Notes under the pieces: generated by a model
Database searches by the model: none
What the model was told of the DNA's origin: nothing
What the model saw: only the letters and a program-made list of their open reading frames with translations
Translations under genes and position numbers: made by a program
In this document: positions 3 to 49,192 of the stretch, piece after piece
How positions within the stretch are numbered: position 1 is the stretch's first letter
Layout: each line of letters starts with the position of its first letter
NCBI GenBank assembly: GCA_018693795.1
Contig: JABHMJ010000043.1
Span: forward strand, 1-49,971
Length of the DNA: 49,971 bases
Direction: 5' to 3'
DNA from: Candidatus Woesearchaeota archaeon
GTDB taxonomy: Archaea > Nanobdellota > Nanobdellia > SCGC-AAA011-G17 > PNOQ01

Positions 3-2360
3 AAAAATTATTTTTTCTTAGAAGAAAATTTAGAGAACTTCTCAACTGAATTAAACAAAATAAATGATACATTCGTTAATCTAAATGATATTCTTCTTGT
101 TAGAGAGGAATATGAAGCTCTCAATGATGAAATAAAGAAAATTGTAATAAAATATTCAGGATTAGAAAAAAAAGACAGATTAATGGACACTTTCAAAAAA
201 TTATATTGGAGTAAAGTTTTAGAAAACATATTGAAAAAGGGAAACATTATTCCACCAAAAGATTTAGTTGAAAAATATCGATTAAATGCATTCGAAGTTA
301 GTGATAACTGGAGATTTAAAATAATGGGTGCTGCAAATATGAAAAAACCTTCTTTAGCTATAACCAGCTCTGGATCTAGCGAAGTTTCAATACTCAGAAG
401 GGAAGGAAAAAAGAAGAGAAGATTAAAACCCATAAGAGATTTATTATCTGAAACATCTGATTTATCTTTTAGCTTAAAACCTTGTTTTATGATGAGTCCA
501 CTGAGTGTAAGCCAATATATTGATCCAAATAAAATAAAATTTGATGTAGTAATCTTTGATGAAGCTTCTCAGATTATGCCCCAGGATGCGGTTCCCTGTC
601 TAATGAGGTCCAAACAAGCAATAATTATGGGAGATACTCAACAACTACCTCCCACTACATTTTTTAGTTCACAGGATGAAGAAGAAGTAGAAGAAGAGAT
701 TGAGGATTTAGAAAGTTTTTTGAGTGAAGCTAGCATAAAATTTAGAGAAAAAAGTTTAGATTGGCATTATAGGAGCAATGATGAATCTCTTATTGCATTT
801 TCAAACCATTTTTTCTATGATGGAAGATTAATAACATTTCCAAATTCTTCTAATTCAAATGGTTTAGAACATATCTATGTAAAAGAAGGAGTTTATGATA
901 GAGGAAAATCAAGAAAGAATAGAAAAGAAGCAAAAGCAATTGTTGAAAGCTATGTTTCTCTAAAAAAGAAGTATCCCACTAAATCATTCGGCATAATAGC
1001 TTTTAGTATAGCTCAAGAAAATGCAATAAGAGAGGAATTCCAACTAAAAAAAATAGATTTAGATGCAAGTATAGGATCTGAAAAAGAAGACCTTTTTGTA
1101 AAGAATTTAGAAACTGTTCAAGGAGATGAAAGAGACATAATCATTATCTCAGTTGGTTACGGGAAAAGTTCAGATGGTAAATTAAGTTATAACTTTGGTC
1201 CAATAAATAAAGAGGGAGGATTTAAAAGATTAAACGTAGCGATAACTCGTTCTAGATTTAAAACCCTAATCTTTTCAAGTATTTTACCAACTATGTTGGA
1301 TGAGGACAAAATAAATTCTCAGGGTCTAAGGAACCTTAAACAATATATGACCTATGCAAGGAAGAAAAATATTGGCGGTTTGATTAGTTCGACCGAACAC
1401 TTAAATTTTGATTCTGGTTTTGAGGAATCCGTTTATGATAGTTTAATTAATGAAGGTTACGATGTAAGTTGCCAAGTTGGTTGTTCAGGTTATAAGGTAG
1501 ACCTAGCAATAAAACACCCCAAAAACAAAGGAGAATATATTTTGGGAGTTGAATGTGATGGTGCCCAGTATCATTCATCAAGATATGCGAGAGATCGGGA
1601 TAAAGTCAGACAAGATGTTCTAGAAAGGCTGGGGTGGAAAATTCACAGGATTTGGTCTGATGACTGGTTAAATAATCGAGAACACGAATTGGAAAAAATA
1701 AAAAACAAAATAAATTCTCTATTGAAAAGTAAAAAAAAATTTGAAAAGAAGCAGGATAATCAATTTTTAGATGCAGATGAAGAACATTTAGAAGAAAAAG
1801 AAATAGAGGATTTATTTGAAAGTTATGAATTTGCAGATATTCCTACAAGGAGAAGAAAGCTCGAATATGATTCATATGGAGACTTATATGATGAAGAGTA
1901 TATAAAAAGATTAATCAGAGAAGTTTTAAGTATAGAGGAACCAATAGAAAAATCCCTACTATATAAGAGGGTGGCAAATTCATTTGGGATAAGAAAGGTT
2001 GGAGCAAGAATTAAAAGAAATTTTGATGGTTTAATTAATGAAATGGGTATACAAAAGAATGGAGAAACCCTATCCTGGAAAAGAATAACAGGTATCTTTC
2101 CCCCTAGAATTTCAAATGAAGAGGTTAGGCCTTTTATATACATACCAAAAGAAGAATTGGCAGGCGCACTTATTGAAATATTAAAAAATAATTTTTCAAC
2201 AGATAGAAAATCAATAATGAAGGATGTCACTAAAATTTATAATATAAATCGTTTGGGTAATAAAGTTCATAAAAAAGTGGAAGAAGCTATCAAATATTTA
2301 AAAAGGAAGAAATTAATTGAGGAATTCGATGGAAAAATACGGAAAACTAAGGAAAAATGA
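3..2360 (+). CDS. SF1 (Upf1/DNA2-like) helicase C-terminal half fused to a Vsr/DUF559-type endonuclease domain and a DUF3320-like tail; 5'-truncated by the window edge
   Basis: The frame is open from nt 3, with no stop before the Met at 183, so the gene begins upstream of the window. Helicase motifs: VVIFDEASQI (II), IIMGDTQQLPPT (III), VQGDERDIIIIS (V), LNVAITRSR (VI). These are followed by GYKVDLAI...LGVECDGAQYH...RDRDKVRQDVLERLGWKIHRIW (REase-fold Vsr/DUF559 signature) and a ~230-aa C-terminal tail. Confidence 0.85.
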   Translation, partial: KNYFFLEENLENFSTELNKINDTFVNLNDILLVREEYEALNDEIKKIVIKYSGLEKKDRLMDTFKKLYWSKVLENILKKGNIIPPKDLVEKYRLNAFEVSDNWRFKIMGAANMKKPSLAITSSGSSEVSILRREGKKKRRLKPIRDLLSETSDLSFSLKPCFMMSPLSVSQYIDPNKIKFDVVIFDEASQIMPQDAVPCLMRSKQAIIMGDTQQLPPTTFFSSQDEEEVEEEIEDLESFLSEASIKFREKSLDWHYRSNDESLIAFSNHFFYDGRLITFPNSSNSNGLEHIYVKEGVYDRGKSRKNRKEAKAIVESYVSLKKKYPTKSFGIIAFSIAQENAIREEFQLKKIDLDASIGSEKEDLFVKNLETVQGDERDIIIISVGYGKSSDGKLSYNFGPINKEGGFKRLNVAITRSRFKTLIFSSILPTMLDEDKINSQGLRNLKQYMTYARKKNIGGLISSTEHLNFDSGFEESVYDSLINEGYDVSCQVGCSGYKVDLAIKHPKNKGEYILGVECDGAQYHSSRYARDRDKVRQDVLERLGWKIHRIWSDDWLNNREHELEKIKNKINSLLKSKKKFEKKQDNQFLDADEEHLEEKEIEDLFESYEFADIPTRRRKLEYDSYGDLYDEEYIKRLIREVLSIEEPIEKSLLYKRVANSFGIRKVGARIKRNFDGLINEMGIQKNGETLSWKRITGIFPPRISNEEVRPFIYIPKEELAGALIEILKNNFSTDRKSIMKDVTKIYNINRLGNKVHKKVEEAIKYLKRKKLIEEFDGKIRKTKEK

Positions 2361-3820
2361 AAACGCTAACTAAATCTAAATATTTACTGGGATTACAATG
2401 CCCTAGACAGGTTTGGGTACATTTTCATGAACCAGATAAGGTTCCAGAAGTTGATGCGGCAACTCAAAAAATATTCGATGAGGGAAATGAAGTTGGCGAA
2501 CTAGTAAAAGAACTATTCCCTGGCGGAATTGATCTGCCAACTAAAGACTTTTTGGGCAACATTCAATTAACTAAAGGTTCCCTAAATGAAGGAAAACCTT
2601 TATTTGAGCCAGGATTTTTAACAGAAGATGGATTGTTTTCTAGAGGAGATATTTTACTTCCAACAGAAAATGGATGGGACATAATCGAAGTCAAAAGCGG
2701 TTCTAAAGTTAAAGATATTAACGTTGAAGATGTAGCATTTCAAAAATATTGTTATCAGAAATGCGGATTAAAAATAAATAAATGTTATTTAATGCATCTA
2801 AATAATGAATATGTTAGGGATGGAGATTTGGATGTCCAAGAACTATTCATACAAGAGGATATTACAGAAAGAGTAGAAGAAATATTGCCACAAGTTCCTG
2901 AGAAAATTCAATTAATAAAGGAAACAGTGGATGATCCAATAAGTCCAGAAAATAAAATTGGGTCCCATTGTAGTAAACCATATAATTGTCCATTTCAAGA
3001 GGAATGTTGGAGTTTTTTACCAGAAAATCATGTTGCTCACTTATATAGGGGGGGTGCCAAAGCTTTTGAATTAATTGATGGGAATATTCATGCTCTAAAA
3101 GATATTCCAGATGAATATAAACTAAATGATAAACAGCAAATTCAAAAAGAATGTGCTAAAACAGGAAAACCACATATACATAAAGAATCTCTGAAGCATT
3201 TTCTTTCAGGTTTAAAATATCCATTGTATTACTTGGATTTTGAAACATTTTCTACTGCAGTTCCAAAATTTGATGGATTAAAACCTTACCAACAAGTTCC
3301 TTTTCAATATAGTTTACATGTTGTTGACTCCCCTGGTGCAGAACCAAAACATTATTCTTTTTTGTATAAAGGAAAGGAAGATCCTCGTAAGGAGTTTATT
3401 TCTTCTTTAAAGAAAGTTTTAGGAGAAGCAGGAGATATAATTGTTTATAATCAAAGTTTTGAAATTTCTCGTTTAAGAGAAACTGCTGCTTTTCTTCCAG
3501 AGTATAATGATTGGGTAGAAAGTGTTGTAGGTCGTGTTGTTGATTTATTGATTCCATTTAGAAATTTTAGTTATTATAATCCAAAACAAGAGGGTTCAGC
3601 TTCTTTGAAATATGTTTTACCTGCTTTAACTGGCAAAGATTATTCACATTTGGGGATAAATAATGGTTCTGATGCTCTTTTACAATTTTATAATGCTACT
3701 TATGGAAATGCTTCAGAGGAAGAAAGAGAGAAAGTTTTCAAAGATTTAGAAGAATATTGTGAATTAGATACTTTGGGTATGGTTTGGATTGTTGATGCTT
3801 TGGGGGAATTGATAGGATAA
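2357..3820 (+). CDS. DUF2779-like protein: N-terminal Cas4/RecB-type PD-(D/E)XK nuclease with four Cys, C-terminal DEDDy-like exonuclease-like half
   Basis: Its ATG overlaps the upstream stop (ATGA at 2357-2360). N-terminal half: GDIL...DIIEVKSG...VAFQKYCY (D / ExK / QxxxY), plus Cys in LQCPRQ and HCSKPYNCPFQEEC. C-terminal half: YYLDFETF (DxE), IVYNQSFEISRL, EYCELDTLG (YxxxD). Confidence 0.7.
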   Translation: MKTLTKSKYLLGLQCPRQVWVHFHEPDKVPEVDAATQKIFDEGNEVGELVKELFPGGIDLPTKDFLGNIQLTKGSLNEGKPLFEPGFLTEDGLFSRGDILLPTENGWDIIEVKSGSKVKDINVEDVAFQKYCYQKCGLKINKCYLMHLNNEYVRDGDLDVQELFIQEDITERVEEILPQVPEKIQLIKETVDDPISPENKIGSHCSKPYNCPFQEECWSFLPENHVAHLYRGGAKAFELIDGNIHALKDIPDEYKLNDKQQIQKECAKTGKPHIHKESLKHFLSGLKYPLYYLDFETFSTAVPKFDGLKPYQQVPFQYSLHVVDSPGAEPKHYSFLYKGKEDPRKEFISSLKKVLGEAGDIIVYNQSFEISRLRETAAFLPEYNDWVESVVGRVVDLLIPFRNFSYYNPKQEGSASLKYVLPALTGKDYSHLGINNGSDALLQFYNATYGNASEEEREKVFKDLEEYCELDTLGMVWIVDALGELIG

Positions 3821-3822
3821 GA

Positions 3823-3833
3823 CTTATAAATTT
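3823..3833 (+). promoter_or_regulatory. TATA-like box upstream of mod
   Basis: CTTATAAATTT is centred ~31 nt upstream of the ATG at 3859. A second copy, CTTTATAAATT, lies at 3837-3847. Confidence 0.35.
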
Positions 3834-3858
3834 AAACTTTATAAATTATTTAATTAAA

Positions 3859-5847
3859 ATGTCAATTAAAATGAAAAAACAACAAACAACAAACAACATT
3901 GCAATTCCCAATAAAGATTTAGAAATTCTCAAAAAACATTTTTCTAATTGCTTTGATAAAGGAGGAAATTTTGATATTGAAAAGTTTAAAAAAGAACTAT
4001 CTAAAAATGAAATAGATTTTTCTAAAGAGGGTTATGGGATTGATTGGTTAGGGAAAAATTACGCTAGATTAATTGCAAGTGATAATGCTACAACCCTTCT
4101 AAAAGGAAATAAAGATTGGAATAAAAAAGATGAAAATAAAGATTCCAAAAACTTGCTTATAAAAGGGGATAATCTAGAAGTATTAAAACATCTTTCAAAC
4201 AATTACTATGAAAAAATAAAAATTATATATATTGATCCTCCTTATAACACTGGAAGTGATGGATTTGTATATCAAGATGATAGAAAATTTACAGTAAAAG
4301 AATTATCAAAACTCGCAGGGATAGATGAAGAAAAAGCAAAAAGAATTTTAGAGTTTACTCAAAGTAAAAGCAATTCTCACAGTGCGTGGCTTACTTTTAT
4401 GTATCCAAGGTTGTATATTGCAAAACAACTTTTAAAAGATGAAGGGGTTATTTTTATTTCAATTGATGATAATGAGGTTGCGCAATTAAGACTTTTAATG
4501 GATGAAATTTTTGGAGAAGAAAATTCTCTCGATAGGGGAACTTTGATATGGGTCAACAAGGGCAGTACAAAGGGGTTTAATAAAATTGTAAAAAACCACG
4601 AATATATTCTGGCTTATGGAAAAAACGCAAGTTTGGTTAAAAGTTTTTATGGTAAAAACCATATAGATGAATTAGATATTATTAATGAAAGACTCCAAAT
4701 TAAAAGAACTCTAAAAAATCCTACATCTCAAGTTTTATTTCCAAAGGGCATAAAAATAGAAGAAGTAGACAACACTCTTTTTGAAAATTCTGTGGGAGGG
4801 AAAACAGGCAGAATTGACATTATTAATAATAATAGAAAAATGATTTTTGAAAATGGACGCCTAAAACATGACATAATCCTAGAGGCCGCATTTCCGTATA
4901 AAAATCAAATGATTAAATTTTTTAAAAATGATGGTGAAGTTTATGATTTTAAAGGTCAAAAATGGCTTGAAGTATATTTCAAAAAAACAGGAATACCCTA
5001 TTTTAAAAAAGAGAGAAATACAAAAATTATAAGCTCCATTTTGGATGACTGTGGCAATTCCGGTTTAAAAGATGTTGAAAAATTGAATATTCCTTTTAAT
5101 AATCCAAAACCAGTGAATTTAATTGAGAAAATTATTGACTATTTTTCCTCAAATGAAGATGTCATCCTCGATTTCTTCGCTGGATCTGGAACAACAGGAG
5201 AAGCAGTAATGCAGTTAAATTCTGATACAAAGGGGAATAGAAAATATATTCTAGTTCAACTTCCTGAAGAAATAAATCCTCAGAAAGACAAAATCTCATA
5301 TGATTTTGTTAAAAAAGAATTAAAAATAAAAAACCCCACAATTTTTGATATAACAAAAGAAAGATTATATAGGTCAGCCAAAAAGATAAAAGAAGATAAA
5401 GAAAAAACAACAGACATAGATTTTGGATTTAAAATATTTGAAACAATACCTATTTGGGAAGATTATAATTTTGATACGGAAGAGTTTAGTTCACAAACAA
5501 AACTTTTCAATGAAAGTAATTTAAGAAAAGAGGACTTACAAATTCTTCTAACAACTTGGAAAACTTATGATGGAATTCCGCTTACACAAGATTTAAAAGA
5601 AATAAATTTAGATGGATATACTGGATATTACTTTGACAATAAATTATACTTGATAGATAAAGGATTTAAAACAAAAAATCTTAAAAAATTATTAACTGAA
5701 ATTGATGAAAACAAAGAGTTTAATCCTGCAATTGTTATTGTATTTGGTTATAATTTTGAAAGTAAAGTTTTAAGAGAAATTGCAGAAAATATAAAAAACT
5801 ATTCTAATAAAAAAAATATGGGAGTTGATTTTGTAACAAGATATTAA
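3859..5847 (+). CDS. mod: Type III restriction-modification system methyltransferase (Mod), N6-adenine, beta-class motif order
   Basis: IYIDPPYNTGSD (motif IV, DPPY) precedes DFFAGSGTTGEA (motif I, FxGxG), with a long variable region between them. The gene lies immediately upstream of a Res-type gene. Confidence 0.9.
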   Translation: MSIKMKKQQTTNNIAIPNKDLEILKKHFSNCFDKGGNFDIEKFKKELSKNEIDFSKEGYGIDWLGKNYARLIASDNATTLLKGNKDWNKKDENKDSKNLLIKGDNLEVLKHLSNNYYEKIKIIYIDPPYNTGSDGFVYQDDRKFTVKELSKLAGIDEEKAKRILEFTQSKSNSHSAWLTFMYPRLYIAKQLLKDEGVIFISIDDNEVAQLRLLMDEIFGEENSLDRGTLIWVNKGSTKGFNKIVKNHEYILAYGKNASLVKSFYGKNHIDELDIINERLQIKRTLKNPTSQVLFPKGIKIEEVDNTLFENSVGGKTGRIDIINNNRKMIFENGRLKHDIILEAAFPYKNQMIKFFKNDGEVYDFKGQKWLEVYFKKTGIPYFKKERNTKIISSILDDCGNSGLKDVEKLNIPFNNPKPVNLIEKIIDYFSSNEDVILDFFAGSGTTGEAVMQLNSDTKGNRKYILVQLPEEINPQKDKISYDFVKKELKIKNPTIFDITKERLYRSAKKIKEDKEKTTDIDFGFKIFETIPIWEDYNFDTEEFSSQTKLFNESNLRKEDLQILLTTWKTYDGIPLTQDLKEINLDGYTGYYFDNKLYLIDKGFKTKNLKKLLTEIDENKEFNPAIVIVFGYNFESKVLREIAENIKNYSNKKNMGVDFVTRY

Positions 5848-5848
5848 A

Positions 5849-8713
5849 ATGGCGGGATTTAATTTTGAAAAAAACTTAGAACATCAAAGTCAGGCAGTAA
5901 ACTCTACGGTGGGTGTTTTTGATAGTGTAGAAATAACAAAACCAAAAGGGATAGAAAAAGAATTCACCAATCCCTTCTTGATTAAAGATACAAGTTTTAA
6001 ATATGTGAAAAATATAGGGAATATTCAAGAACAAAATAGTATCGAAAGAAGTGTAAAAGGTAGGAGCAATATTCTTGATATTATGATGGAAACCGGAACA
6101 GGAAAAACTTATGCTTACACCAAAACTATTTTTGAACTCAATAAATTATATGGAATCTTTAAGTTTGTAATTGTGGTGCCCACATTACCCATTAAAGCAG
6201 GGACAATTGATTTTTTAAATTCAGATAGCGCGAGAGAACATTTTAAGGAACAATACGGTAAAACAATAAAAATCCATATTGTAGAAAGTAAAAATGGTAG
6301 GAAAAATAAAAAATCTTATATGCCTCCTGCCATAAATAGTTTTGTCAATGCGGGAAGTTTTGAAAAAAATAAAATTCAAGTATTAATAATAAATGCGGGG
6401 ATGGTTAATTCCAAAACCATGCAAGAAAAGTTTGATAGAACTTTATTAGATAAACATACAATCCCTTTTGAAGCTATCTCTGCAACAAAACCTTTTATGA
6501 TTATTGATGAGCCCCATAAGTTTACTAAAGAAAATACAACATGGCAAAATATTCAGAAAATGGATCCCCAATTTATTCTTAGATATGGTGCAACCTTTAA
6601 AGAAAATGAAAATCTAATTTATAACTTAACTGCTGTTGATTCCTTTAATAGAAATCTAGTAAAGGGAGTTATTGGCCACATTACAGAATTTGAAACTGGG
6701 AAAAATGCAATAATAAAATTTGTAAATTCTGATGGCAAAGAAGCAAGTTTAGATTTAATAGAAAATGATAAAAAGAAATCATTTAAGATTATTGCAAAAG
6801 AAAGTTTAGAAAAAATGCATAATGCAATGGCAGATTTGTATATTGAAAATTTAAACAAAACCACAATTATTTTGTCTAATGGATTAGAATTAAAAAAAGG
6901 AGATAAAATAAATCCATATTCTTATGCAGAAACATTGCAAGAAACAATGATTCAAAAAGCGATTAAACATCATTTTGAACAAGAAAAGAAATATCTTACA
7001 AGGGTAGTCAAAATAAAGCCACTAACTCTGTTTTTTATTGATAATATTGAAGAATATAGAAATAAAGAAGGGTATCTAAAAAAAACTGTTGAAAAATATA
7101 TAAAAGTAGAAGTTAAGAAATTGTTAAAAACAGAAAAAGATAAATTCTATAAAGAATACTTAGAAAAAACTTTGCAAGATATTTCAAAAACTCACGGAGG
7201 TTATTTTTCTAAAGATAATAGTGAAAAAGATGAGGCAATTGAAAAAGAAGTAAATGAAATTTTGCACGATAAACAAGAAATACTAGATTTAGAAAATCCA
7301 AGAAGATTTATTTTTTCTAAATGGACATTAAGGGAAGGGTGGGACAATCCAAATATTTTTCAGATTTGTAAATTAAGAAGTAGTGGATCAGAGATTTCAA
7401 AATTACAAGAGGTAGGTCGTGGGCTTCGTTTGCCAGTAAATCAATATGGAAATCGTGTAAAAAATGAACAATTTTTCTTAAATTATTTTGTAGATTTTAC
7501 TGAGAATGATTTTGTAGAACAATTGGTAAATGAAATAAACGAAAAATCAGGGGCAATTTCAATAGAAGATACCCCCAAAAAACTTACAGGTGAAATAATT
7601 AAACAAATAGTTGAAAAATATAATATCCAGGAAGAAAAATTGTTAGAAAAGCTAGATGGTGCAAGTGTTATCAAAAGGAATAATGATTTTAAAACAGATG
7701 GATTTGAGTATATAAAAACAAATTATCCGCTTATTTTTGAAGGGATAAATTCAAACAAAGTTAGAAGAGTCGCAGATACCAAAAAGAAACTGGGGATAAG
7801 GGTTAAAAAATACGCAGAATTAAAAGATTTGTGGGAAAAACTTAATGAAAAAGTTGTATTAGAATATAAAATAGAAAATGAAAACAAATTTAAAGAACTT
7901 TTTATAGATTTTTTAAAAAACAACCCTTCTTTTTCAATTGAAGGGGTAAAAGAGAAAATAGCAAAAATAACCTTTGAAAAAAAACAAGCTACCTTAAAAG
8001 AAGAAGTTGCAATCTATGGAAATAAAATAAAACCTATCTCAACAATGAGATATGATGAATTTTTGAAACAACTATCTAAAATTTTACATATTAATTTAAA
8101 AACTTTGCATCAGTGTTTTGTTGAAACAAAAATAGAAATAGATAAATATCAAAATCAATCTACTATTAGATTTTTCCAAAAAAAATTTAATGATTACTTG
8201 ATGTATGAGGCTTTGAACAAATTTACAATTGAATATAAAAAAGTAACAGGTTCCATTCATCCAACAAAATTTACAAATGTTGATGGCAAAGTTAAAGATG
8301 AAATTGACGCTTCTGATGTAGGGTTACTTTATTCGGATGACCTTGTAGCAAACAATTATTTTTTTGAGGAATTATTTTATGATTCAGAATTAGAAAAAGA
8401 AAATATAAAAACAAAAGTAAGTGAAGTGATTGTTTTTACTAAGATACCTAAAAATTCAATTAGGATACCTGTTGCAGGAGGTAAAAGCTATTCTCCCGAT
8501 TTTGCTTATGTCTTAAATTTTGAGGATGGCAAAAAGAAATTGTATTTTATTGTTGAAACAAAAAATACTGATGAAGAAAGCCTAAGAAAAGAAGAAATAC
8601 AAAAGATTAAACATGCAGAAAAATTCTTTGGGGATACTATAAAAATAAAATTCAAAACACAATTTAGTGATAGGAAAATAGCAACTTTAATTCAAGAGAT
8701 ATATAATAAATAA
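5849..8713 (+). CDS. res: Type III restriction enzyme Res subunit (SF2 helicase plus C-terminal PD-(D/E)XK nuclease)
   Basis: Starts 1 nt after the mod stop. Motifs: METGTGKTY (Walker A/motif I), MIIDEPHK (motif II), QEVGRGLRLPV (motif VI), and C-terminal SPDFAYVL...YFIVETKNT (D...ExK). Confidence 0.9.
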   Translation: MAGFNFEKNLEHQSQAVNSTVGVFDSVEITKPKGIEKEFTNPFLIKDTSFKYVKNIGNIQEQNSIERSVKGRSNILDIMMETGTGKTYAYTKTIFELNKLYGIFKFVIVVPTLPIKAGTIDFLNSDSAREHFKEQYGKTIKIHIVESKNGRKNKKSYMPPAINSFVNAGSFEKNKIQVLIINAGMVNSKTMQEKFDRTLLDKHTIPFEAISATKPFMIIDEPHKFTKENTTWQNIQKMDPQFILRYGATFKENENLIYNLTAVDSFNRNLVKGVIGHITEFETGKNAIIKFVNSDGKEASLDLIENDKKKSFKIIAKESLEKMHNAMADLYIENLNKTTIILSNGLELKKGDKINPYSYAETLQETMIQKAIKHHFEQEKKYLTRVVKIKPLTLFFIDNIEEYRNKEGYLKKTVEKYIKVEVKKLLKTEKDKFYKEYLEKTLQDISKTHGGYFSKDNSEKDEAIEKEVNEILHDKQEILDLENPRRFIFSKWTLREGWDNPNIFQICKLRSSGSEISKLQEVGRGLRLPVNQYGNRVKNEQFFLNYFVDFTENDFVEQLVNEINEKSGAISIEDTPKKLTGEIIKQIVEKYNIQEEKLLEKLDGASVIKRNNDFKTDGFEYIKTNYPLIFEGINSNKVRRVADTKKKLGIRVKKYAELKDLWEKLNEKVVLEYKIENENKFKELFIDFLKNNPSFSIEGVKEKIAKITFEKKQATLKEEVAIYGNKIKPISTMRYDEFLKQLSKILHINLKTLHQCFVETKIEIDKYQNQSTIRFFQKKFNDYLMYEALNKFTIEYKKVTGSIHPTKFTNVDGKVKDEIDASDVGLLYSDDLVANNYFFEELFYDSELEKENIKTKVSEVIVFTKIPKNSIRIPVAGGKSYSPDFAYVLNFEDGKKKLYFIVETKNTDEESLRKEEIQKIKHAEKFFGDTIKIKFKTQFSDRKIATLIQEIYNK

Positions 8714-8717
8714 TATT

Positions 8718-9386
8718 TTAGTTATTCTCCTTCCAACTCCAATAATCACACTTCCCAACAATAACATGATCCAAAACAGAAATACCCAATAATTCTCCCG
8801 CTTCTCTAAAAATTTCAGTAACTCTCTCATCCTCAGAACTAGGACTACAATCACCTGAAGGATGATTATGAACTAATATTATGGAATTTGCACTCTCTTT
8901 AATAGCACTCTTAAAAACCTCACGTGGATGAACCAGAGAACTATTTAAGGTACCAACAGAAACAACAGAATCTTTAATAATAAAATTTTTAGTATCTAAA
9001 TACAAACAAAGAAAATACTCTTTTTTACGTTTACCATAAGAATCAACAAAATAATCATAAACATCTTTGGCAGAAGTAATCTTTCGTTTATAACCATGAT
9101 TAACCAATTTATTATATCTTTTACTCAACTCAATTAAAGCTTGTATTCTAAATGCTTTTCCAATATCATTATTACATTCTTTCAACAACTCAGTAAAACC
9201 AAGTTCTTCAAATTTGTGTAAATTATATTTTTTTAATAATCTGTTACTTATTTCTAAAGCACTCTCTTTTTTATCCCCTTTCCCAAATATTATTGATAAT
9301 AACTCTGCAGTATCTAATGAAGAAGCACCCTGTTTTAGTAATTTAGAAGAAGGTTTGTTAAATGAAGGCAAATCTTTTATTTTCAT
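8718..9386 (-). CDS. radC: RadC-like JAB/MPN domain protein
   Basis: JAMM-type motif ILVHNHPSGDCSPSSED. The N-terminal HhH-like segment ELLSIIFGKGDKKESALEISNRLL is typical of the RadC family. Confidence 0.85.
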   Translation of the reverse strand: MKIKDLPSFNKPSSKLLKQGASSLDTAELLSIIFGKGDKKESALEISNRLLKKYNLHKFEELGFTELLKECNNDIGKAFRIQALIELSKRYNKLVNHGYKRKITSAKDVYDYFVDSYGKRKKEYFLCLYLDTKNFIIKDSVVSVGTLNSSLVHPREVFKSAIKESANSIILVHNHPSGDCSPSSEDERVTEIFREAGELLGISVLDHVIVGKCDYWSWKENN

Positions 9387-9426
9387 AAAAAAACTAACTA
9401 AAATCTCTTTAAAAGGTTTTATTTAG

Positions 9427-9501
9427 TTAACTACTAACAAAAGTGTCTCCCATCTCTTCATACCTTTCCACCAATTCCAAAAATATTTCATTTATTTCCA
9501 T
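9427..9501 (-). CDS. Possible 24-aa micro-ORF (MEINEIFLELVERYEEMGDTFVSS) with a strong Shine-Dalgarno
   Basis: On the minus strand, GGAGGTCTAAATG places GGAGG 5 nt upstream of the ATG at 9499-9501, with the TAA at 9427-9429. It lies in the integrase-radC intergenic gap and is below the ORF-track size cut-off. Confidence 0.25.
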   Translation of the reverse strand: MEINEIFLELVERYEEMGDTFVSS

Positions 9502-9555
9502 TTAGACCTCCAATTATTTCAAAGGCCTATTGCTTAACATGTCTAAAGACTCGGT

Positions 9556-10905
9556 TTATTGCTTGACCATTTTCCTAAATTCTGAATACAATTCAAAAAA
9601 CTTACTTTTCAAAGCAGGAGTATTCATAACAGTTTCAAAATTTAAATCATAAGTATTACCAGAAGCGCAAGAAACAACAGGAGCTTTCTGTACATCTAAA
9701 CAAAAGGAATCAATCTCTTTACTTAACCTCTCAACTTTCAATAACTCCTTTTCATTTAAAATCATTCCGCAATTACAATGCATTGCATCAATTGGATTCT
9801 TTCTATCACACCTGGGGCAAGTAATTAACTGCATAACCTTTTCATTACTCCCTTCAGAACTAACAATTCCATACATTTCAGCATATTTGTTATTAACATG
9901 GTCTTCAGAGTAATGCAAATAAATCTTCGCCATTTGAGATCCTTCACTCCATCCCGCCCTAACAGACAAATCCCTCTCAGACCAACCTAATCTACCCAAT
10001 TTATCCAAAGCAGCATGTCTAAAAGCATGCGGATTAACTCTTTTAGTTATTCCAGAACGTTTAGCATATTTAACCAACAATCCACGAATTCCAGCTAAAG
10101 TAAGTCTTTTTCCATAATCACGAGTACCAAGACAATAAAATAAAGGAGCTTCAGAATTTTTCTTGTATACATGTTGGTTCTTATAACGCCTCAAATAAGG
10201 TTCACTAATAATCAATCTAATCTTTCTTTTTTTAGTCTTACTCTCTTGTATATCAATAAAAGCACCATAACTATCAAAACTAATATTTCCAACATTCAAA
10301 TCAATTAATTCTCCAACTCTACACCCACTTTCTGCTAGAATAGATATCAATGCTTTATCTCTAGCCAAATCTGCTGAATTAATTAGTTTCAAAATATCAG
10401 AATCATCCAACAACTTATTTTGATCCAATCTCTCAATCATGCACTTATCAAATTTCATATTCTCCAAAGTTTCAACAATTTCATTAAAATCCAATTTTTC
10501 ACGTTTTGCTAGCCAAGCATAAAAACATTTCAGAGTTTTTGCAATAGAATTCAACACTGATTGACTACAAGAAGAATATCGCTCAATAAATCCTTCTGCA
10601 TCAGATAAATTGGCCTCTAAATACTCTTTGTTAATATACACGCCAAATCTCCGTAAATGCCTTATATACTCATAAAAAGTTGCATAGCTTCTAGCCTTCT
10701 TACTAGACTTAGTCACTGTATTGCCTGTCCTAAGGGCCATGTAATAGGTTCTCAATAACTTTTGTTGATCTAAACTCAAGTTTCCCTTCACAATAACCTT
10801 AGAACTACTATCTCTGCTTTGATCTACCTGATCAGTTAAACACCTTTCAATTCTTTCAATATACTGTTCTTCTCGTTCTTTTCTCATTTTATAACAAATA
10901 GCCAA
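9556..10905 (-). CDS. Tyrosine recombinase/integrase (XerC/D-like) with a ~100-aa C-terminal extension carrying a zinc ribbon
   Basis: ESGCRVGELIDL (catalytic Arg box), HAFRHAALDKL (HxxR), KIYLHYS (catalytic Tyr), then CPRCDRKNPIDAMHCNCG. The track start at 10905 is a TTG; the first ATG is at 10887. Confidence 0.85.
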   Translation of the reverse strand: MAICYKMRKEREEQYIERIERCLTDQVDQSRDSSSKVIVKGNLSLDQQKLLRTYYMALRTGNTVTKSSKKARSYATFYEYIRHLRRFGVYINKEYLEANLSDAEGFIERYSSCSQSVLNSIAKTLKCFYAWLAKREKLDFNEIVETLENMKFDKCMIERLDQNKLLDDSDILKLINSADLARDKALISILAESGCRVGELIDLNVGNISFDSYGAFIDIQESKTKKRKIRLIISEPYLRRYKNQHVYKKNSEAPLFYCLGTRDYGKRLTLAGIRGLLVKYAKRSGITKRVNPHAFRHAALDKLGRLGWSERDLSVRAGWSEGSQMAKIYLHYSEDHVNNKYAEMYGIVSSEGSNEKVMQLITCPRCDRKNPIDAMHCNCGMILNEKELLKVERLSKEIDSFCLDVQKAPVVSCASGNTYDLNFETVMNTPALKSKFFELYSEFRKMVKQ

Positions 10906-10988: not shown

Positions 10989-12017
10989 TTATTTTAATAT
11001 TGTTAATTTCTTTGGTTTTTGTTTTATATCCAATTCTTTAAAATTTATATTGACAAAATATGCTCCAGAAGGTAAATTCCTACCTGAGCTATCTTTTTGA
11101 TTCCAAAAATAGGAATTGCTTTCCCCAATTTCTGCAAAAATATCTTCTGTTCTTAACATTCTTCCTTTTAAATCAGATATAGTTATTCTTGCCTGGCCAT
11201 ATCCTGAATAATCTATGGTAGTCCCAGACTGAGGATTTGATGGGTTGGGATATAAATTAGTTATACCATAATTAACTTGTATTATTTCTCCAGGATTATT
11301 TGGGTCTTCAATGTCTTCAATGGAAACTTGATTATATGCATCAAAGAATTCAGATGGAGGACTTCTAGGGCCTTCATCTCCGTCAAAATCAACACCAGAA
11401 ACATAAATTCTAAACCAATAATTAACTCCGGAGGTAAAACTAACAAAAGCAGATTCACCTGTAGCTTCCTTTATTTTAAATATTTCCCCATAATCTCCAC
11501 TTTCAGGATTATAGTATTCGATATAAACATTATAATATTCAACTTCAGGTCCAGTTTCAGGAGGTCCCCACACATATTGTACTTCATCTTCATCCATCCC
11601 ACTAGGATCAATATAATTCATAGGATTATTAGAAACATAATTGTAAGCATGATTATCTTTTATTGGATCAACAGAAGTAAATCTTCCTAATGAAGAATCA
11701 TAATATCTTGCATTAAAATAATATAAATCAGAATCTAATTCTTTTCCAGTAAAACTAAATCTTTTACCAATTTTCAACGATTGACCAAAGGGTAATGATT
11801 TAGACTCAACATCTGATCCTAAACGATCTTGATAATGATAAGTAATAGTGTCATCATTTTTAGAAGCAACTAACTTAGAACCAGCATAAAAGTAAGTAGT
11901 CTCTCCACCGGGAATAACTTTATCTTTAGTTTCAAAAACTTCAGGTATAGAAATATCTTTTGAATTAACTAAAGGGATAACTAATAAAATTACAAATATC
12001 ACCAAACTTAATTTCAT
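10989..12017 (-). CDS. Secreted RHS-core family protein, paralogue 1: signal peptide, minimal RHS repeat-associated core, FN3-like domain, FlgD-Ig/T9SS-CTD-like domain
   Basis: N-terminal hydrophobic signal. YYFNARYYDSSLGRFTSVDP...NNPMNYIDPSGM is the RHS repeat-associated core signature ending in DPxG. The C-terminus, LYPNPSNPQSGTTIDY...ITISDLKGRML...WNQKDSSGRNLPSGAYFV, resembles the FlgD-Ig/Por-type sorting-domain pattern. Confidence 0.75.
   Translation of the reverse strand: MKLSLVIFVILLVIPLVNSKDISIPEVFETKDKVIPGGETTYFYAGSKLVASKNDDTITYHYQDRLGSDVESKSLPFGQSLKIGKRFSFTGKELDSDLYYFNARYYDSSLGRFTSVDPIKDNHAYNYVSNNPMNYIDPSGMDEDEVQYVWGPPETGPEVEYYNVYIEYYNPESGDYGEIFKIKEATGESAFVSFTSGVNYWFRIYVSGVDFDGDEGPRSPPSEFFDAYNQVSIEDIEDPNNPGEIIQVNYGITNLYPNPSNPQSGTTIDYSGYGQARITISDLKGRMLRTEDIFAEIGESNSYFWNQKDSSGRNLPSGAYFVNINFKELDIKQKPKKLTILK
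11595..12017 (-). repeat. Conserved N-terminal module (signal peptide + RHS core to DPSGM), copy 1 of 3
   Basis: Protein- and nucleotide-level similarity to 29526-29942 and 47914-48327. For example, 11828-11910 aligns to 29749-29831 with only scattered mismatches. Confidence 0.85.
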
Positions 12018-28808: not shown

Positions 28809-29942
28809 TTAATAATCAGAAAATAAATTTGAATCGTAAACGTCTTGAACTTTTTTTCCAAATGAATCTCCTTTGATATGTTTTCCATTTAATACATACG
28901 GAAAGGTAGTGCCTCCGGCCCTTGGTTGTCTATTTGGATCTGGGAATACATTTCTTATTCCTATATTGTACACAGTCCCAAGTAAATTAGGAGAATCTGA
29001 AATATCGTGGCCAACATGAGAATAAATATTTTCCAATACTTTCAAAATAACAGCGGTTTCACCAATACTAACTATATTTTGTTGATCTTGTTTTTCCCAT
29101 CTTTCCCAACCAGTAGATTCAAAAAATTCATCAGCAGCAACATTATATACTAAATCTGAATTCCTTTCCATTCCTGCAGTAATAGTTCTAGTTGTATCAG
29201 GATATAATGCATTAGAAGTAGAAGTAACTTCGATAGGGTGGCCAGAGGCCAAGTCCTTAGAATTTGATCTTGCACTATATTTTAAATGTGTAAAGCCAAC
29301 AGAAAGATCAACTTCTGTCATAAACCATTTTATAACATCTATTTTTGCCAAATCAGCCTTCAATTTTCTCATTGTATCAAATTCATATTGTACCCTTTCA
29401 ACATAAATTATTGAAGCCATTACTTTGGGATCTACCTCATACCTATCTGAAATATACTTTATTGCATCTTCATATCTATTAATGTCACCTACAACCATAT
29501 TTTGAACTTTAACATATCTTTCATCCATACCAGTAGGATCAATAAAATTCATAGGATTATTATTAACATATACATAAGGTAAATTATCTTTAACAGGATC
29601 TACAGAAGTAAACCTCCCTAAATTTGGATCATAATATCTTGCATTAAAATAATACAACTCTTCATCCAATTCTTTCCCAGTAAAAGAAAATCTTTCTAGA
29701 ACTTTCAACGATTGGCCAAATGGCAAAGATTTAGAATTTATATCCGAACCTAAACGATCTTGATAGTGATAAGTTACAATGTCATCATTTTTAGATGCAA
29801 GTAATTTAGAACCAGCATAAAAATAAGTAGTTTCACCAGAAATAACTTTATCTGGAGTTTCAAAAACTTCTTGGATAACAACATCTTTAGAATTAACTAA
29901 AGGAATAATTAACAAAATTATAAATATCACCCAAACTTTCAT
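28809..29942 (-). CDS. Secreted RHS-core family protein, paralogue 2, with a unique ~235-aa C-terminal domain
   Basis: Same N-terminal module as paralogue 1 (YYFNARYYDPNLGRFTSVDP...NNPMNFIDPTGM), after which the sequence is unrelated. The track start at 29954 is a TTG; the first ATG is at 29942. Confidence 0.75.
   Translation of the reverse strand: MKVWVIFIILLIIPLVNSKDVVIQEVFETPDKVISGETTYFYAGSKLLASKNDDIVTYHYQDRLGSDINSKSLPFGQSLKVLERFSFTGKELDEELYYFNARYYDPNLGRFTSVDPVKDNLPYVYVNNNPMNFIDPTGMDERYVKVQNMVVGDINRYEDAIKYISDRYEVDPKVMASIIYVERVQYEFDTMRKLKADLAKIDVIKWFMTEVDLSVGFTHLKYSARSNSKDLASGHPIEVTSTSNALYPDTTRTITAGMERNSDLVYNVAADEFFESTGWERWEKQDQQNIVSIGETAVILKVLENIYSHVGHDISDSPNLLGTVYNIGIRNVFPDPNRQPRAGGTTFPYVLNGKHIKGDSFGKKVQDVYDSNLFSDY
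29526..29942 (-). repeat. Conserved N-terminal module (signal peptide + RHS core to DPTGM), copy 2 of 3
   Basis: See 11595-12017. Confidence 0.85.
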
Positions 29943-30002
29943 AATGAAAAACAATCTAAAAACTATATAAATATTTTTAAAATATATAATGTATAAAACG
30001 TT

Positions 30003-30551: not shown

Positions 30552-30592
30552 AAAGATTTATAAACTAATTATTGAGAATTTATATTAGAAAA

Positions 30593-31297
30593 ATGACAAT
30601 AATGGCTACTAAAAGGAATACTAGAAGAAATAAAAGAGGGGCAATGGCGGCTTTATCTTTAATAGCATTAGTTACAATGCCCCCTCATATGCAACCTCAA
30701 GAACAAACAATTCCTTATCCAGAAATACAATATGAAATTCCAGAAGAACCATTAATTTTCTCTGAGAATGAACAGAAAGTAATACAATTTCCATTAATTC
30801 CAACTATTGAAGTAAATCCAAAATTAGAAATTTATAGAGATTTAATAAAAGAAAAATCTGAGAAATATGGTTTTGAAGCAGATTACGTTGCAAGAATTAT
30901 ATGGCAAGAATCAAGAGGAGATTCAACTGCAGTTTCAAAAGCAGGAGCAATAGGGTTAGTACAATTAATGCCAAAAAACATAGATAGATACAAGGTTAAT
31001 AATCCAAATAATCCTGAAGAAAATTTAGAAGCAGGATTACAACATTTAAGATGGTTAACAGATAAATTTGGTGGAGACCATGAACAAGGTTTAGCAGCAT
31101 ATAATGTTGGTCAAAGACATGTAATAAAGGCATTAAAACCAAAATCTGGAAAATTAGAAAAAATACCATTATATGGGGGAAAACCTGTTAATGGAAAAAC
31201 TCATTACAATTGGACTTGGCATAATTATGAATTAAGAACAGAAAGATTACCTAAAGAAACAAGAAAATACATCGATACAATAATGGAAAATGAATAA
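30593..31297 (+). CDS. Lytic transglycosylase (SLT/GH23 lysozyme-like domain), membrane-anchored or secreted
   Basis: ARIIWQESRGDSTAVSKAGAIGLVQLMP...LAAYNVGQ gives the three SLT motifs: catalytic E-S, GLxQ and AYNxG. There is an N-terminal hydrophobic segment. The track start at 30572 is a TTG; the first ATG is at 30593. Confidence 0.8.
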   Translation: MTIMATKRNTRRNKRGAMAALSLIALVTMPPHMQPQEQTIPYPEIQYEIPEEPLIFSENEQKVIQFPLIPTIEVNPKLEIYRDLIKEKSEKYGFEADYVARIIWQESRGDSTAVSKAGAIGLVQLMPKNIDRYKVNNPNNPEENLEAGLQHLRWLTDKFGGDHEQGLAAYNVGQRHVIKALKPKSGKLEKIPLYGGKPVNGKTHYNWTWHNYELRTERLPKETRKYIDTIMENE

Positions 31298-45076: not shown

Positions 45077-45388
45077 CTATTTACTTGTATGTTCATCAAA
45101 ATAAACAAGTCTCATTCCAGGATGAATTAAATCTGGATTTTCTAAATCATTTTGTTCAGCAATCTCATAAGGGGAGATTTTATGGCCATAATATTTTTCT
45201 AATTTATTGGCAATCTTAGTTAAATTATCTCCCTCTCTAATAAGACTATGAGACCTAATATTGATTTTATTTCCATCATATGAATATTTTAAAAAAAGTT
45301 CTCCATCTCTGCCAAGATTACCTGCCAAAGAAGAAGAAGACAAAACCAAATTGCCTGCAATCAAAAGGGAGGTTAATATTTTTTTCAT
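45077..45388 (-). CDS. Secreted LysM-domain protein (103 aa)
   Basis: Signal peptide. HSLIREGDNLTKIANKL...ISPYEIAEQNDLENPDLIHPGMRLV matches the LysM pattern (v..GDtL..IA......eL...N.l....l..Gq.L). Confidence 0.7.
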   Translation of the reverse strand: MKKILTSLLIAGNLVLSSSSLAGNLGRDGELFLKYSYDGNKINIRSHSLIREGDNLTKIANKLEKYYGHKISPYEIAEQNDLENPDLIHPGMRLVYFDEHTSK

Positions 45389-45777: not shown

Positions 45778-46512
45778 ATGATAGATCCAGTAGCTATAAC
45801 ATTAGGAACAATTCAAATACGTTGGTATGGAATAATAATGGCATTTGGATTTTTATTAGCTTATTTCATTTCTCAAAAACTAGCAAAATACAGAAACATA
45901 TCAAAACAAGATATGTCTGATTATTTTATGTACTTTATAATTTCTTCAATAATTGGGGCAAGACTCTGGGCAGTAATATTAAACTACCAAAATTACATAA
46001 GTAATCCTTTAGAAATTTTTGCAGTTTGGCATGGAGGAATGGCAGTTCATGGGGGAATAGCTGGAGCAGTTATAGCAACACATTATTTTGCAAAAAAAAG
46101 AAATTTAAATTTTTATGATCTTGCAGATATAATAGTAATTCCTACAGCACTAGGACTTGCATTGGGAAGAATTGGTAATTTTATAAATCAAGAATTTTAC
46201 GGCAAACCAACTTCATTACCTTGGGGAGTTTTCTTCGACAATATAGAACAAAAAAGACATCCTTCACAAATTTATGAATCACTAAAAAATTTACTAATCT
46301 TCGGAATAACATTAAAACTATTCATATTTAAAAAATTAAAAAGAGGAACAATATTCTGGTTATTTATTTTATTTTACTCAATACTAAGATTTTCGGTAGA
46401 ATTCTTAAAAGACATGCCAACATTATTTAACTTAACTTATGGACAAATAATTTCAATACCATTAATAATACTATCAATAATTATGTTAAGAAAAATAGCA
46501 AATCCTACGTAA
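45778..46512 (+). CDS. lgt: Prolipoprotein diacylglyceryl transferase (bacterial-type Lgt)
   Basis: IRWYGIIMAFGFLLAY, WHGGMAVHGGIAG, GRIGNFINQEFYGKPTSLPWGV and RHPSQIYES are canonical Lgt signatures. Confidence 0.9.
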   Translation: MIDPVAITLGTIQIRWYGIIMAFGFLLAYFISQKLAKYRNISKQDMSDYFMYFIISSIIGARLWAVILNYQNYISNPLEIFAVWHGGMAVHGGIAGAVIATHYFAKKRNLNFYDLADIIVIPTALGLALGRIGNFINQEFYGKPTSLPWGVFFDNIEQKRHPSQIYESLKNLLIFGITLKLFIFKKLKRGTIFWLFILFYSILRFSVEFLKDMPTLFNLTYGQIISIPLIILSIIMLRKIANPT

Positions 46513-47913: not shown

Positions 47914-48327
47914 ATGAAAATTTGGGTGGCATTAGTAATTCTATTAATTATTCCTGTTTCTATAGCAAAAGATGTTGATATTCCTAAAGTTTTTGAAACT
48001 GAAAAAGGTTTAACAGAAGAAACTACTTATTTTTACACAGGAGATAAATTACTTGCATCTAAAGATTCTTCAGGAATAACTTATCATTATCAAAATAGAT
48101 TAAATTCAGACATTAATTCTAAATCACTTCCATTCGGACAAGAAATAAATAATCAAAAAAGATTTTCATTTACTGGAAAAGAACTAGATGAGAGCCTTTA
48201 TTATTTTGGAGCAAGATATTACGATCCAAAGATTGGCAGATTTACTTCAGTAGATCCAGTAAAATCAGAACCCCCTTATCAATATGTAAAAAATAATCCA
48301 ATGAATCTAATAGACCCTGACGGCAGA
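47914..48327 (+). repeat. Conserved N-terminal module (signal peptide + RHS core to DPDGR), copy 3 of 3
   Basis: See 11595-12017. This is the most diverged of the three copies. Confidence 0.8.
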
Positions 48328-48969
48328 CAAACTGTAGAAACCTCATTTGATGAATTTAAATCATATCTAAAAAAATATTTCAAACCAGAAATAAGAAGAC
48401 ATGCAGATAAAATAGTAAATATGGCCTATGGAGAAGTATCATTTGAAACCACAAGTGGAGAAAGAAGTTTTTCAGTTTACCCTGGATTTGCATCTAATAC
48501 AGAATTCAGGAATACTGCATTTGAATTAGCTAAAGATTACTATGTAAATTCATATATGGATGGCGGGGCAACTAGAATAGAAGCCTTACGTGGTTATTGG
48601 ACTGAAATGACATTAGTAAGAATGAATGAAGAAGTGCCAGGAGGAATAGAAGAAAAATATTATCATGTTGATGTTGGTTTTGACAATGTTAAATGGTACA
48701 GAGGGATATTTAGGTTAGAAAAAGTTGAAAGAAATATTCCAATAAGTTTGAGATTAGATATAGCTTTAGATCTATTTGCAGAAGGAACAGTAGAAAGAGC
48801 TGCTGTAGAATTAAGAATGGATCAAGATAATAAAAGAAAACAAAAACAATTAGATAGATTAATATTTAAAAGAGAAACAGGAAAAGAAATGCCAAAATCA
48901 AGTTGGACAGATAATATAAAAATTAAAAGAAATTTCTTAAATGACATATATGACTTTGTCCATAGATAG
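47914..48969 (+). CDS. Secreted RHS-core family protein, paralogue 3, with a unique ~210-aa C-terminal domain
   Basis: Same N-terminal module (YYFGARYYDPKIGRFTSVDP...NNPMNLIDPDGR), after which the sequence is unrelated to paralogues 1 and 2. Confidence 0.75.
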   Translation: MKIWVALVILLIIPVSIAKDVDIPKVFETEKGLTEETTYFYTGDKLLASKDSSGITYHYQNRLNSDINSKSLPFGQEINNQKRFSFTGKELDESLYYFGARYYDPKIGRFTSVDPVKSEPPYQYVKNNPMNLIDPDGRQTVETSFDEFKSYLKKYFKPEIRRHADKIVNMAYGEVSFETTSGERSFSVYPGFASNTEFRNTAFELAKDYYVNSYMDGGATRIEALRGYWTEMTLVRMNEEVPGGIEEKYYHVDVGFDNVKWYRGIFRLEKVERNIPISLRLDIALDLFAEGTVERAAVELRMDQDNKRKQKQLDRLIFKRETGKEMPKSSWTDNIKIKRNFLNDIYDFVHR

Positions 48970-49007: not shown

Positions 49008-49130
49008 CCCGTCATAGCTCAGCGGTAGAGCGTGTGGCTGTAGATACTATTAGACTATGTCGTAAAGACTAGGTATGAAAAATAGTCAGCTGAACCCGCA
49101 AGGTCCCCGGTTCAAATCCGGGTGACGGGA
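49008..49130 (+). tRNA. tRNA-Tyr (anticodon GUA) with a ~51-nt intron at or next to the canonical 37/38 site
   Basis: Hand fold: acceptor CCCGTCA/TGACGGG (C1:G72), D arm GCTC-AGCGGTA-GAGC, anticodon stem TGTGG/CCGCA, loop start CTGTAG(A), variable AGGTC, T arm CCCGG-TTCAAAT-CCGGG, discriminator A. The intron spans roughly 49044/49045 to 49094/49095 and contains an internal helix, GACTAT (49053-49058) with ATAGTC (49082-49087). Confidence 0.85.
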
Positions 49131-49192
49131 TAACTTTTCTTAAGTGGTAACAATTAGAAAGATTTATAAATAACTTAAAAATTATCCTTTAT

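Follow-up and report, generated by a model that had tools for sequence, protein, structure and literature searches.

How an RHS toxin might act when its plug is made without its shell is the question raised by three short genes on contig JABHMJ010000043.1 (assembly GCA_018693795.1) of a Candidatus Woesearchaeota archaeon. RHS toxins are thought to depend on a cocoon, a shell that surrounds the toxin and inside which the plug protease is active. The genes, termed here copies 1, 2 and 3, lie within positions 1 to 49,971 of the contig, the whole of the stretch analysed and hereafter the window, at 10989-12017 (-), 28809-29942 (-) and 47914-48969 (+). They encode proteins of 342, 377 and 351 amino acids (aa), at the positions and on the strands that the preliminary description of this DNA had given. 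The products are putative RHS effectors of DPANN archaea, Sec-exported, plug-only and without immunity genes, that stem from a split RHS gene; toxicity, self-cleavage and independence of a shell are what we infer for them. On balance, the three genes probably belong to a family specific to Woesearchaeota/Nanoarchaeota of Sec-exported polymorphic effectors, in which an autonomous plug carries a payload directed at bacteria.

The shared plug module and its exchangeable tails

Each protein would be laid out as a signal peptide, one YD hairpin together with the RHS C-terminal plug, which is an aspartyl autoprotease domain, and finally some 200-300 aa of payload. Read by eye, the N-termini have the appearance of Sec signal peptides that would be cleaved off (for example MKVWVIFIILLIIPLVNS|KD). 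That of copy 1, predicted to cover aa 1-19 (MKLSLVIFVILLVIPLVNS|KD; 11961-12017 (-)), has a Lys n-region and a hydrophobic core 14 aa long, and ends in V-N-S (positions -3 to -1), a pattern that is kept across the family. The predicted signal peptides of copies 2 and 3 are encoded at 29889-29942 (-) and 47914-47967 (+), and for copy 2 the alignment of the paralogues favours the ATG at 29942 over an upstream TTG at 29954 as the start codon. The plug module follows at 11598-11960 (-) in copy 1, where alignment with the TccC3, YenC2 and Rhs plugs places it at aa 20-140 with IDPSG as the last residues, at 29529-29888 (-) in copy 2 and at 47968-48324 (+) in copy 3. The common N-terminal region of some 140 aa, which had been recognised earlier, is 80% identical between copies 1 and 2 and 64-69% identical between these and copy 3. 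A tblastn search of the window with the shared module returned exactly three copies (E 1e-61 to 1e-72) and no orphan module fragments.

That the module is a genuine RHS-associated core is clear from the hidden Markov model TIGR03696 (Rhs_assc_core), a comparison named beforehand as a possible refutation. The refutation fails when the search is run, as all three proteins exceed the cutoff of 32.5 bits, with 71.3, 72.3 and 72.8 bits for copies 1 to 3 over about aa 74-141; the ten relatives that were examined all reach 64-71 bits. Among solved structures, the module matches the extreme C-terminal aspartyl-protease plug of TccC3, YenC2 and the Rhs shells of type VI secretion systems (T6SS), and the alignments stop at DPxG, the same point at which those solved constructs end. 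Residues 1263-1357 of Photorhabdus laumondii Rhs1 form a C-terminal plug and aspartyl protease; its cleavage comes after two DPLGL motifs, of which the second holds the catalytic Asp, and the substitution D1338N abolishes cleavage (PMC8636562). The corresponding Arg, both Asp and the Gly (R101, D114 and D134-x-x-G137) do not vary among 28 aligned modules. The ratio of non-synonymous to synonymous divergence (dN/dS) of the module among the window paralogues is 0.27-0.36 and the module is therefore under purifying selection. Following export, the plug would cut the chain after DPxG and so free the payload, a step suggested by the invariant catalytic residues.

Short genes of this kind could in principle be non-functional remnants, such as orphan rhs-CT cassettes or the 3' ends of RHS genes in decay, or else assembly artefacts or bacterial contamination. 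Signal-less short orphan cassettes with an RHS core do exist on bacterial contigs recovered by the same scans (for instance L070, L071 and L026; L numbers designate loci and their contigs), and these were used as controls together with the classical long bacterial RHS proteins that the scans also gave. The window genes differ from such relics in being intact open reading frames (ORFs), all of which start at an ATG and encode a signal peptide. They are under the constraint described above and their catalytic residues are invariant. The exact copy 1 protein is found on 19 public contigs and an identical copy 3 protein on five, all independent. The guanine-plus-cytosine (GC) content of the three genes is the same as that of the remaining window (about 29%), and on contigs of 45-123 kb their neighbours are archaeal housekeeping genes. 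This explanation is largely refuted and highly improbable. The host is an archaeon, as had been assumed: Ribosomal_L35Ae, TBP and split RpoB genes occur on the same contigs, the nearest homologues are in metagenome-assembled genomes (MAGs) of Woesearchaeota/Nanoarchaeota, and an intron-containing tRNA lies just past copy 3. This tRNA, missed by ARAGORN and found with Rfam at 49008-49130, contains an intron because it is 123 nt long.

The likeness between the copies ends, as the preliminary description had it, at the DPxG motif. Nucleotide identity runs from the start codon and drops to background level straight after the DPxG(-MDE) codons; over the module it amounts to 81.8% for copies 1 and 2, 73.6% for copies 2 and 3 and 69.0% for copies 1 and 3. 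The C-terminal tails, designated CT1 (202 aa; 10992-11597 (-)), CT2 (239 aa; 28812-29528 (-)) and CT3 (214 aa; 48325-48966 (+)), give no blastn match to one another and are unrelated at the protein level too, which bears out the differing C-termini reported before. A weak, non-significant likeness of 45 aa (38% identity, E 0.7) can be seen between CT1 and CT2 (11193-11318 and 28881-29009). It centres on the motif 'N-[LV]-[YF]-P-[ND]-P' that opens Por_Secre_tail domains, and may be due to chance or may represent the remnant of an older tail within CT2.

Copies 1 and 2 are indeed alike at the nucleotide level, although the example first offered, 11828-11910 against 29749-29831, is about 10 nt off register (20/83 identities); the correct pairing is 11828-11900 with 29759-29831, at 89% over 73 nt. 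This likeness had been attributed to recent duplication or recombination. The duplication of copies 1 and 2 is not recent, because their synonymous divergence (dS) is about 0.54, and together with a dN/dS of 0.27 this indicates an old, constrained paralogy. Recombination is supported, not through the comparison of copy 1 with copy 2 but through an allelic variant of the copy 1 locus.

The variant, L028 (protein P0001), comes from another sample and is 100% identical to the copy 1 locus over 453 nt, corresponding to window positions 12149-11697. The identical stretch spans the upstream intergenic region and codons 1-107. It breaks off just 3' of the ARYYD codons, between 11696 and 11697 (-), after which identity is about 72% down to 11597, across the remaining core, and nil past DPxG. 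As read from the alignment, the ARYYD codons at the breakpoint fall within the longest exact nucleotide match between copies 1 and 2 (27 nt). An assembly chimera was considered as the source of the breakpoint and rejected, since L088, an independent contig from another metagenome, shares the junction. The switch at the copy 1 locus is C-terminal displacement as in polymorphic toxins. The payloads would be swapped by homologous recombination that starts in the best-conserved tract of the core, YYFNARYYD, as shown at this locus.

A survey for further cassettes, suggested at the outset, was made by scanning GTDB genomes and metagenomes. The first yielded 21 loci in six Woesearchaeota/Nanoarchaeota MAGs, with three to six per genome and some of them tandem arrays (the L012 locus has four members), and the second about 30 further members on low-GC contigs. 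The tails are hypervariable, as anticipated, with 60 C-termini falling into 49 unrelated clusters. Moreover, positional orthologues whose flanking genes are 41-91% identical bear unrelated tails (L005/L016/L022, L006/L007 and L015/L018/L020). Literature searches on DPANN and RHS, and on RHS core, signal peptide and archaea, found no description of this family.

The family is not uniform in its N-terminal architecture. In one subfamily (L015 5635-6966, L018 5176-6510, L020 5557-7002, L038 and L043), whose genes are positional orthologues beside a TrmB-like regulator, an extra ~110 aa stands between the signal peptide and the plug. This region consists of repeats rich in N-x-T/S sequons (NITDNISIINITDN...), which suggests a heavily N-glycosylated stalk. 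A second short subtype from metagenomes (L076, L078, L079, L086, L089 and L106) has about 265-270 aa of N-terminal region before the core and a conserved 'SLFP' after the signal peptide; its contigs are low in GC and its tails are again diverse. In the JBDRET MAG, three members share one locus (L024 1693-7086), with lipobox-like signal peptides (…LVSGC), a longer canonical core and two secreted ORFs on the opposite strand between the three members; this contig may belong to a different lineage or be misbinned.

A separately encoded YD shell

The three proteins had been characterised as shell-less mini-RHS effectors. This holds for the polypeptides themselves, in which the distance of ~55 aa from signal peptide to core corresponds to about one YD hairpin and no long YD cocoon, and in which no RHS_repeat Pfam match was found. 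As an account of the system it is incomplete, since related Woesearchaeota have a further gene for a YD-shell protein without a core. One family member (L006) is adjoined by a secreted YD-repeat protein of 2224 aa that matches Rhs shells (7q97, E 6.5e-12) and has no RHS core. Core-less shell ORFs of 1980-2224 aa with a signal peptide were found in three of the six family-bearing MAGs and on two metagenome contigs (L112 3679-10353; L116 163-6105, JAGWAE; L115 2-2224, JAIOSD; L033 1-2442; L051 1-2289).

All of the shell ORFs stop past the last YD hairpin, where a tail of 80-135 aa follows. These C-terminal tails are dockerin-like or Cys-rich, the best PDB matches of the JAIOSD tail being dockerin modules (E 0.019), and hence a cohesin-like anchoring partner is implied in these archaea. 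On two contigs a short gene comes directly after the shell gene on the same strand, with gaps of 37 nt (L033) and 10 nt (L051). When both are mapped on a canonical single-chain RHS protein, the shell ORFs end at about 800-832 and the short proteins begin at about 808-834, such that the two halves abut. This collinearity, along with the adjacency in related genomes, indicates that an ancestral RHS gene was split just before the core; the family would have originated by fission of a canonical RHS gene at this point.

The same observations bear on how the proteins function today. It is conceivable, though on the whole doubtful, that the system is an obligate two-component RHS, in which the cocoon is made from separate subunits. 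The Sec-exported shell, encoded apart and tethered at the cell surface by its dockerin-like tail, would then be joined and completed extracellularly by interchangeable plug-and-payload subunits. Apart from the shell ORFs with their Rhs-shell and dockerin matches, the close spacing in L033 and L051 and the collinearity of the halves, such an assembly is favoured by the modelling of the plug module alone, which AlphaFold2 does not predict with confidence (predicted local distance difference test, pLDDT, 32-62). Autonomous cleavage is likewise uncertain, because the known RHS protease works within a cocoon. Were the two-component arrangement true, one shell would be armed with dozens of mostly novel payloads against bacteria or host cells, and immunity genes would not be needed. 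A two-chain cocoon is already known from the Tc toxins, where orphan TcC genes share one TcB (PMC7861908), and one archaeal shell could serve many payload subunits in the way that several TcC share one TcB.

Several features do not fit with an obligate shell. Neither the window nor the 10 kb past either edge yielded a shell gene, and a single-protein scan with the shell as query recovered its own contig only. Most of the short genes lie scattered, with upstream regions of their own, and in JAIOSD it is housekeeping genes that come after the shell gene. The enclosing of a payload by means of a subunit that adds almost no shell is without precedent, and the fission may reflect the origin of the family only and not its present function. 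An SpvB/TcB-like identity of the shell N-terminus was considered and has no support, as its N-terminal 895 aa give neither a TcB nor any other PDB sequence match (E <= 0.01).

Payloads, immunity and genomic surroundings

In the preferred reading, that of autonomous plug-and-payload effectors, at least some payloads would act on bacterial peptidoglycan, as suggested by the YkuD domain of a relative and by the tail of copy 2, which is probably lysozyme-like. The YkuD L,D-transpeptidase domain, in the L004 tail, scores 43.7 bits against a gathering threshold of 23.4. A PT-TG pre-toxin domain in the L016 tail reaches 28.7 bits (gathering threshold 23.5) and one tail of the L012 array matches TIGR02594 below cutoff.

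CT2 is probably a divergent lysozyme-like or lytic-transglycosylase-like enzyme, judging from sequence profiles and a structural model. An HMMER search of 1.84 billion representatives gave 32 relatives of CT2, among them another RHS-core protein (P0022). Some are C-terminal parts of other long secreted proteins; many stand alone at 200-260 aa, those inspected beginning with a hydrophobic, signal-like N-terminus; the L010 tail also belongs to this CT2 family (hhalign 94.6%). The family has collinear, sub-threshold matches to DUF1402 (17-24 bits against a gathering threshold of 27), a domain for which no literature was found. The five best PDB matches of the family profile are g-type lysozymes and a lytic transglycosylase (E 0.2-1), and a nearly invariant Glu of the family aligns on the Glu of the lysozyme '...IISRE' motif, which we take to be the catalytic residue of the g-type enzymes. 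The AlphaFold2 model of CT2 is confident (pLDDT 87.9) and its top Foldseek list comprises Tse3, which is a T6SS muramidase, MltC, MltE, Slt35 and g-type lysozymes, at E >= 0.2 and TM-scores of 0.35-0.44.

About 630 bp from copy 2, the window encodes a canonical SLT lytic transglycosylase at 30572-31297 (+) (PF01464, 89 bits), whose N-terminus is a hydrophobic anchor or signal. CT2 has no detectable kinship with this protein (hhalign probability 4%). Close to copy 3 are a small secreted LysM protein at 45077-45388 (-) and a bacterial-type prolipoprotein diacylglyceryl transferase (LGT) at 45778-46512 (+; 254 bits), and a related contig carries a Peptidase_A8 (signal peptidase II) gene. The presence in the window of both the canonical SLT transglycosylase and the LysM protein speaks for the preferred reading. 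Archaea are known to secrete bactericidal peptidoglycan hydrolases (PMC12352652) and Woesearchaeota carry GH23 enzymes (PMC9723730); RHS proteins are unmentioned in either paper.

CT1 had been described as FN3-like plus FlgD-Ig/Por-tail-like. The Por-tail match is borderline but real with TIGR04183 (26.1 bits, cutoff 23), whereas PF18962 stays below its threshold of 27 (24.7-26) and fn3 is weak (E 0.05-0.1). Related tails occur in L013, where FlgD_ig reaches 33.7 bits and is above its gathering threshold of 27, and in L081. The type IX secretion system, for which such tails serve in bacteria with an outer membrane, cannot be used by an archaeon that has none, and hence the Por-tail match represents fold resemblance only. 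The beta-sandwich tail of copy 1 may therefore be a binding module and not an enzyme. CT3 is an orphan domain with no assigned fold. A word-index search and an exhaustive HMMER search of 1.84 billion proteins both returned nothing other than CT3 itself, and a full-length AlphaFold2 model of copy 3, for which the alignment covered the N-terminal module only, was unusable (pLDDT 47, predicted TM-score 0.27).

Immunity genes were looked for as co-oriented ORFs of at least 60 aa starting within 30 nt of the stop codon. An ORF of this kind lies downstream of 4 of the 45 short archaeal-type genes as compared with 15 of 17 bacterial RHS control loci (p = 4.8e-9). In the window the next features are the integrase (copy 1), a UMP kinase (copy 2) and the tRNA (copy 3), consistent with the earlier statement that no immunity gene adjoins the first two. 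An archaeal producer is expected to be without murein. The family would lack immunity genes because such a producer needs no protection from wall-degrading payloads, and its role would be antagonism against, or feeding on, bacteria and not competition with kin.

A 144-aa membrane ORF past the tRNA of copy 3 was considered as an immunity gene and rejected, as it lies in a ~1-kb insertion that a strain encoding an identical copy 3 does not have. This insertion is flanked by a 45-bp repeat; the sequence at 49133-49177, following the tRNA, recurs about 1 kb downstream (L029 6187-6231). L030 is without the post-tRNA ORFs of the window (144 aa, 131 aa and onward) and runs on to TBP and the RNA polymerase genes. 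The post-tRNA segment looks like a small insertion at the tRNA.

The absence of immunity genes may be read differently, if the proteins are not weapons at all. They might be an ordinary secreted or surface family, in which the plug is a conserved leader or pro-domain and the tails are adhesins, binding modules or nutrient-scavenging exoenzymes employed in episymbiosis. The FN3/Ig-like beta-sandwiches of CT1 and its relatives, the N-glycosylation sequon-rich repeats of L015, L018 and L020, which are typical of archaeal surface proteins, and the failure to find immunity genes or classical toxin domains are in line with this. PT-TG in L016, YkuD in L004 and the lysozyme-like CT2 family are, however, the domain types of antibacterial effectors. 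Moreover, 49 clusters from 60 tails, with swaps at orthologous loci, are typical of conflict systems and not of housekeeping surface proteins, which renders this alternative unlikely.

A number of these results nonetheless weigh against bacteria-directed, autonomous effectors, in addition to the poor model of the isolated plug and its uncertain cleavage. Pfam matches at E <= 1e-3 are confined to 8 of the 60 tails, leaving 52 without any, and no classical nuclease, deaminase or ADP-ribosyltransferase toxin domain was found by Pfam among the 60. CT1 seems to have a fold that serves binding or structure, and none of the lines of evidence for CT2 is significant by itself (E 0.003-1, TM-score <= 0.44). 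CT3, with no Pfam, PHROG or PDB match, is unassignable. Without an immunity arms race, moreover, what drives the diversification of the tails is unexplained.

The left part of the window is taken up by an integrase-associated defence island (183-10905), which lies directly downstream of copy 1. It encodes a DUF4011/MTES_1575 helicase-nuclease, a DUF2779 protein, the Mod (3859-5847) and Res (5849-8713) subunits of a type III restriction-modification system, RadC (8718-9386) and a tyrosine integrase (9556-10905), and in other contigs GmrSD is found further left of it. One contig from the Joint Genome Institute (JGI) has no integrase and carries DUF5320/DUF134 genes after copy 1; as these stand in the place of the integrase, the island varies between strains.

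Significance and comparison with known systems

To our knowledge, the weapons that DPANN archaea use against their neighbours are largely unknown. The occurrence of a plug-and-payload family beside a plug-less shell gene means either that the plug is an autonomous, self-cleaving export module or that the cocoon can be built and loaded from separate subunits. The family provides some 50 candidate effector domains that are unrelated to one another and, with few exceptions, have no known fold, and it ties in with the bacteriolytic or 'vampiristic' lifestyle proposed for Woesearchaeota. Through rapid swapping of its tails it may let tiny archaea attack bacterial cell walls, and the absence of immunity genes would characterise it as a polymorphic toxin system aimed across domains and not at kin.

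The closest likeness is to the YD-repeat toxins of the Rhs/WapA/TcC type (P. laumondii Rhs1, TccC3 and YenC2), which share the TIGR03696 core and the two Asp-Pro motifs, the second of these being the DPxG right before the hypervariable C-terminus, and whose tails are also swapped by recombination inside the core. Unlike these toxins, the archaeal polypeptide has no YD cocoon and retains about one hairpin and the plug only, with an Asp-Asp spacing in the window family that is three residues shorter than in TccC3. It carries a plain Sec signal in place of PAAR/VgrG, LXG or TcB-binding regions, is not followed by an immunity gene and comes from a DPANN archaeon.

The BC component of the Tc toxins (TcB + TcC) is also a two-gene cocoon, in which the second gene supplies the plug, the cleavage site and a hypervariable payload, and extra payload genes are found elsewhere (PMC7861908). 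In contrast to Tc BC, the archaeal split falls just before the core and not mid-shell, the TcC-like half measures ~120 aa as opposed to ~680 aa, the shell ends in a dockerin-like module and the joining of the halves is a proposal. The TcB signature domains were not detected in the PDB sequence search with the N-terminal 895 aa of the shell, and no search was aimed at TcA. Orphan rhs-CT/immunity cassettes, which follow directly on full rhs genes, similarly consist of short ORFs with the end of a core and a variable tail that act as substrates for recombination. Unlike those cassettes, which have no start codon or secretion signal of their own and are paired with immunity genes, the window genes are complete, signal-bearing, dispersed and immunity-less.

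With regard to the predicted role, the window family resembles the secreted archaeal hydrolases of peptidoglycan Woldo/Danwoldo and the GH23 transglycosylases of 'predatory' Woesearchaeota, which are exported via Sec or Tat from archaea without a wall or murein and are shown or predicted to act on bacterial murein, and for which self-immunity is unneeded (PMC12352652, PMC9723730). Those enzymes differ in having neither an RHS core nor polymorphic tails and in their layout of a catalytic and a peptidoglycan-binding domain. In archaea, polymorphic toxin systems are considered rare (Zhang 2012, PMC3482391). The classical stalked RHS toxins of Methanosarcina acetivorans are likewise an RHS-type polymorphic system in an archaeon; unlike the window family, they are full-length and have cassettes and immunity genes as in bacteria (PMC3482391).

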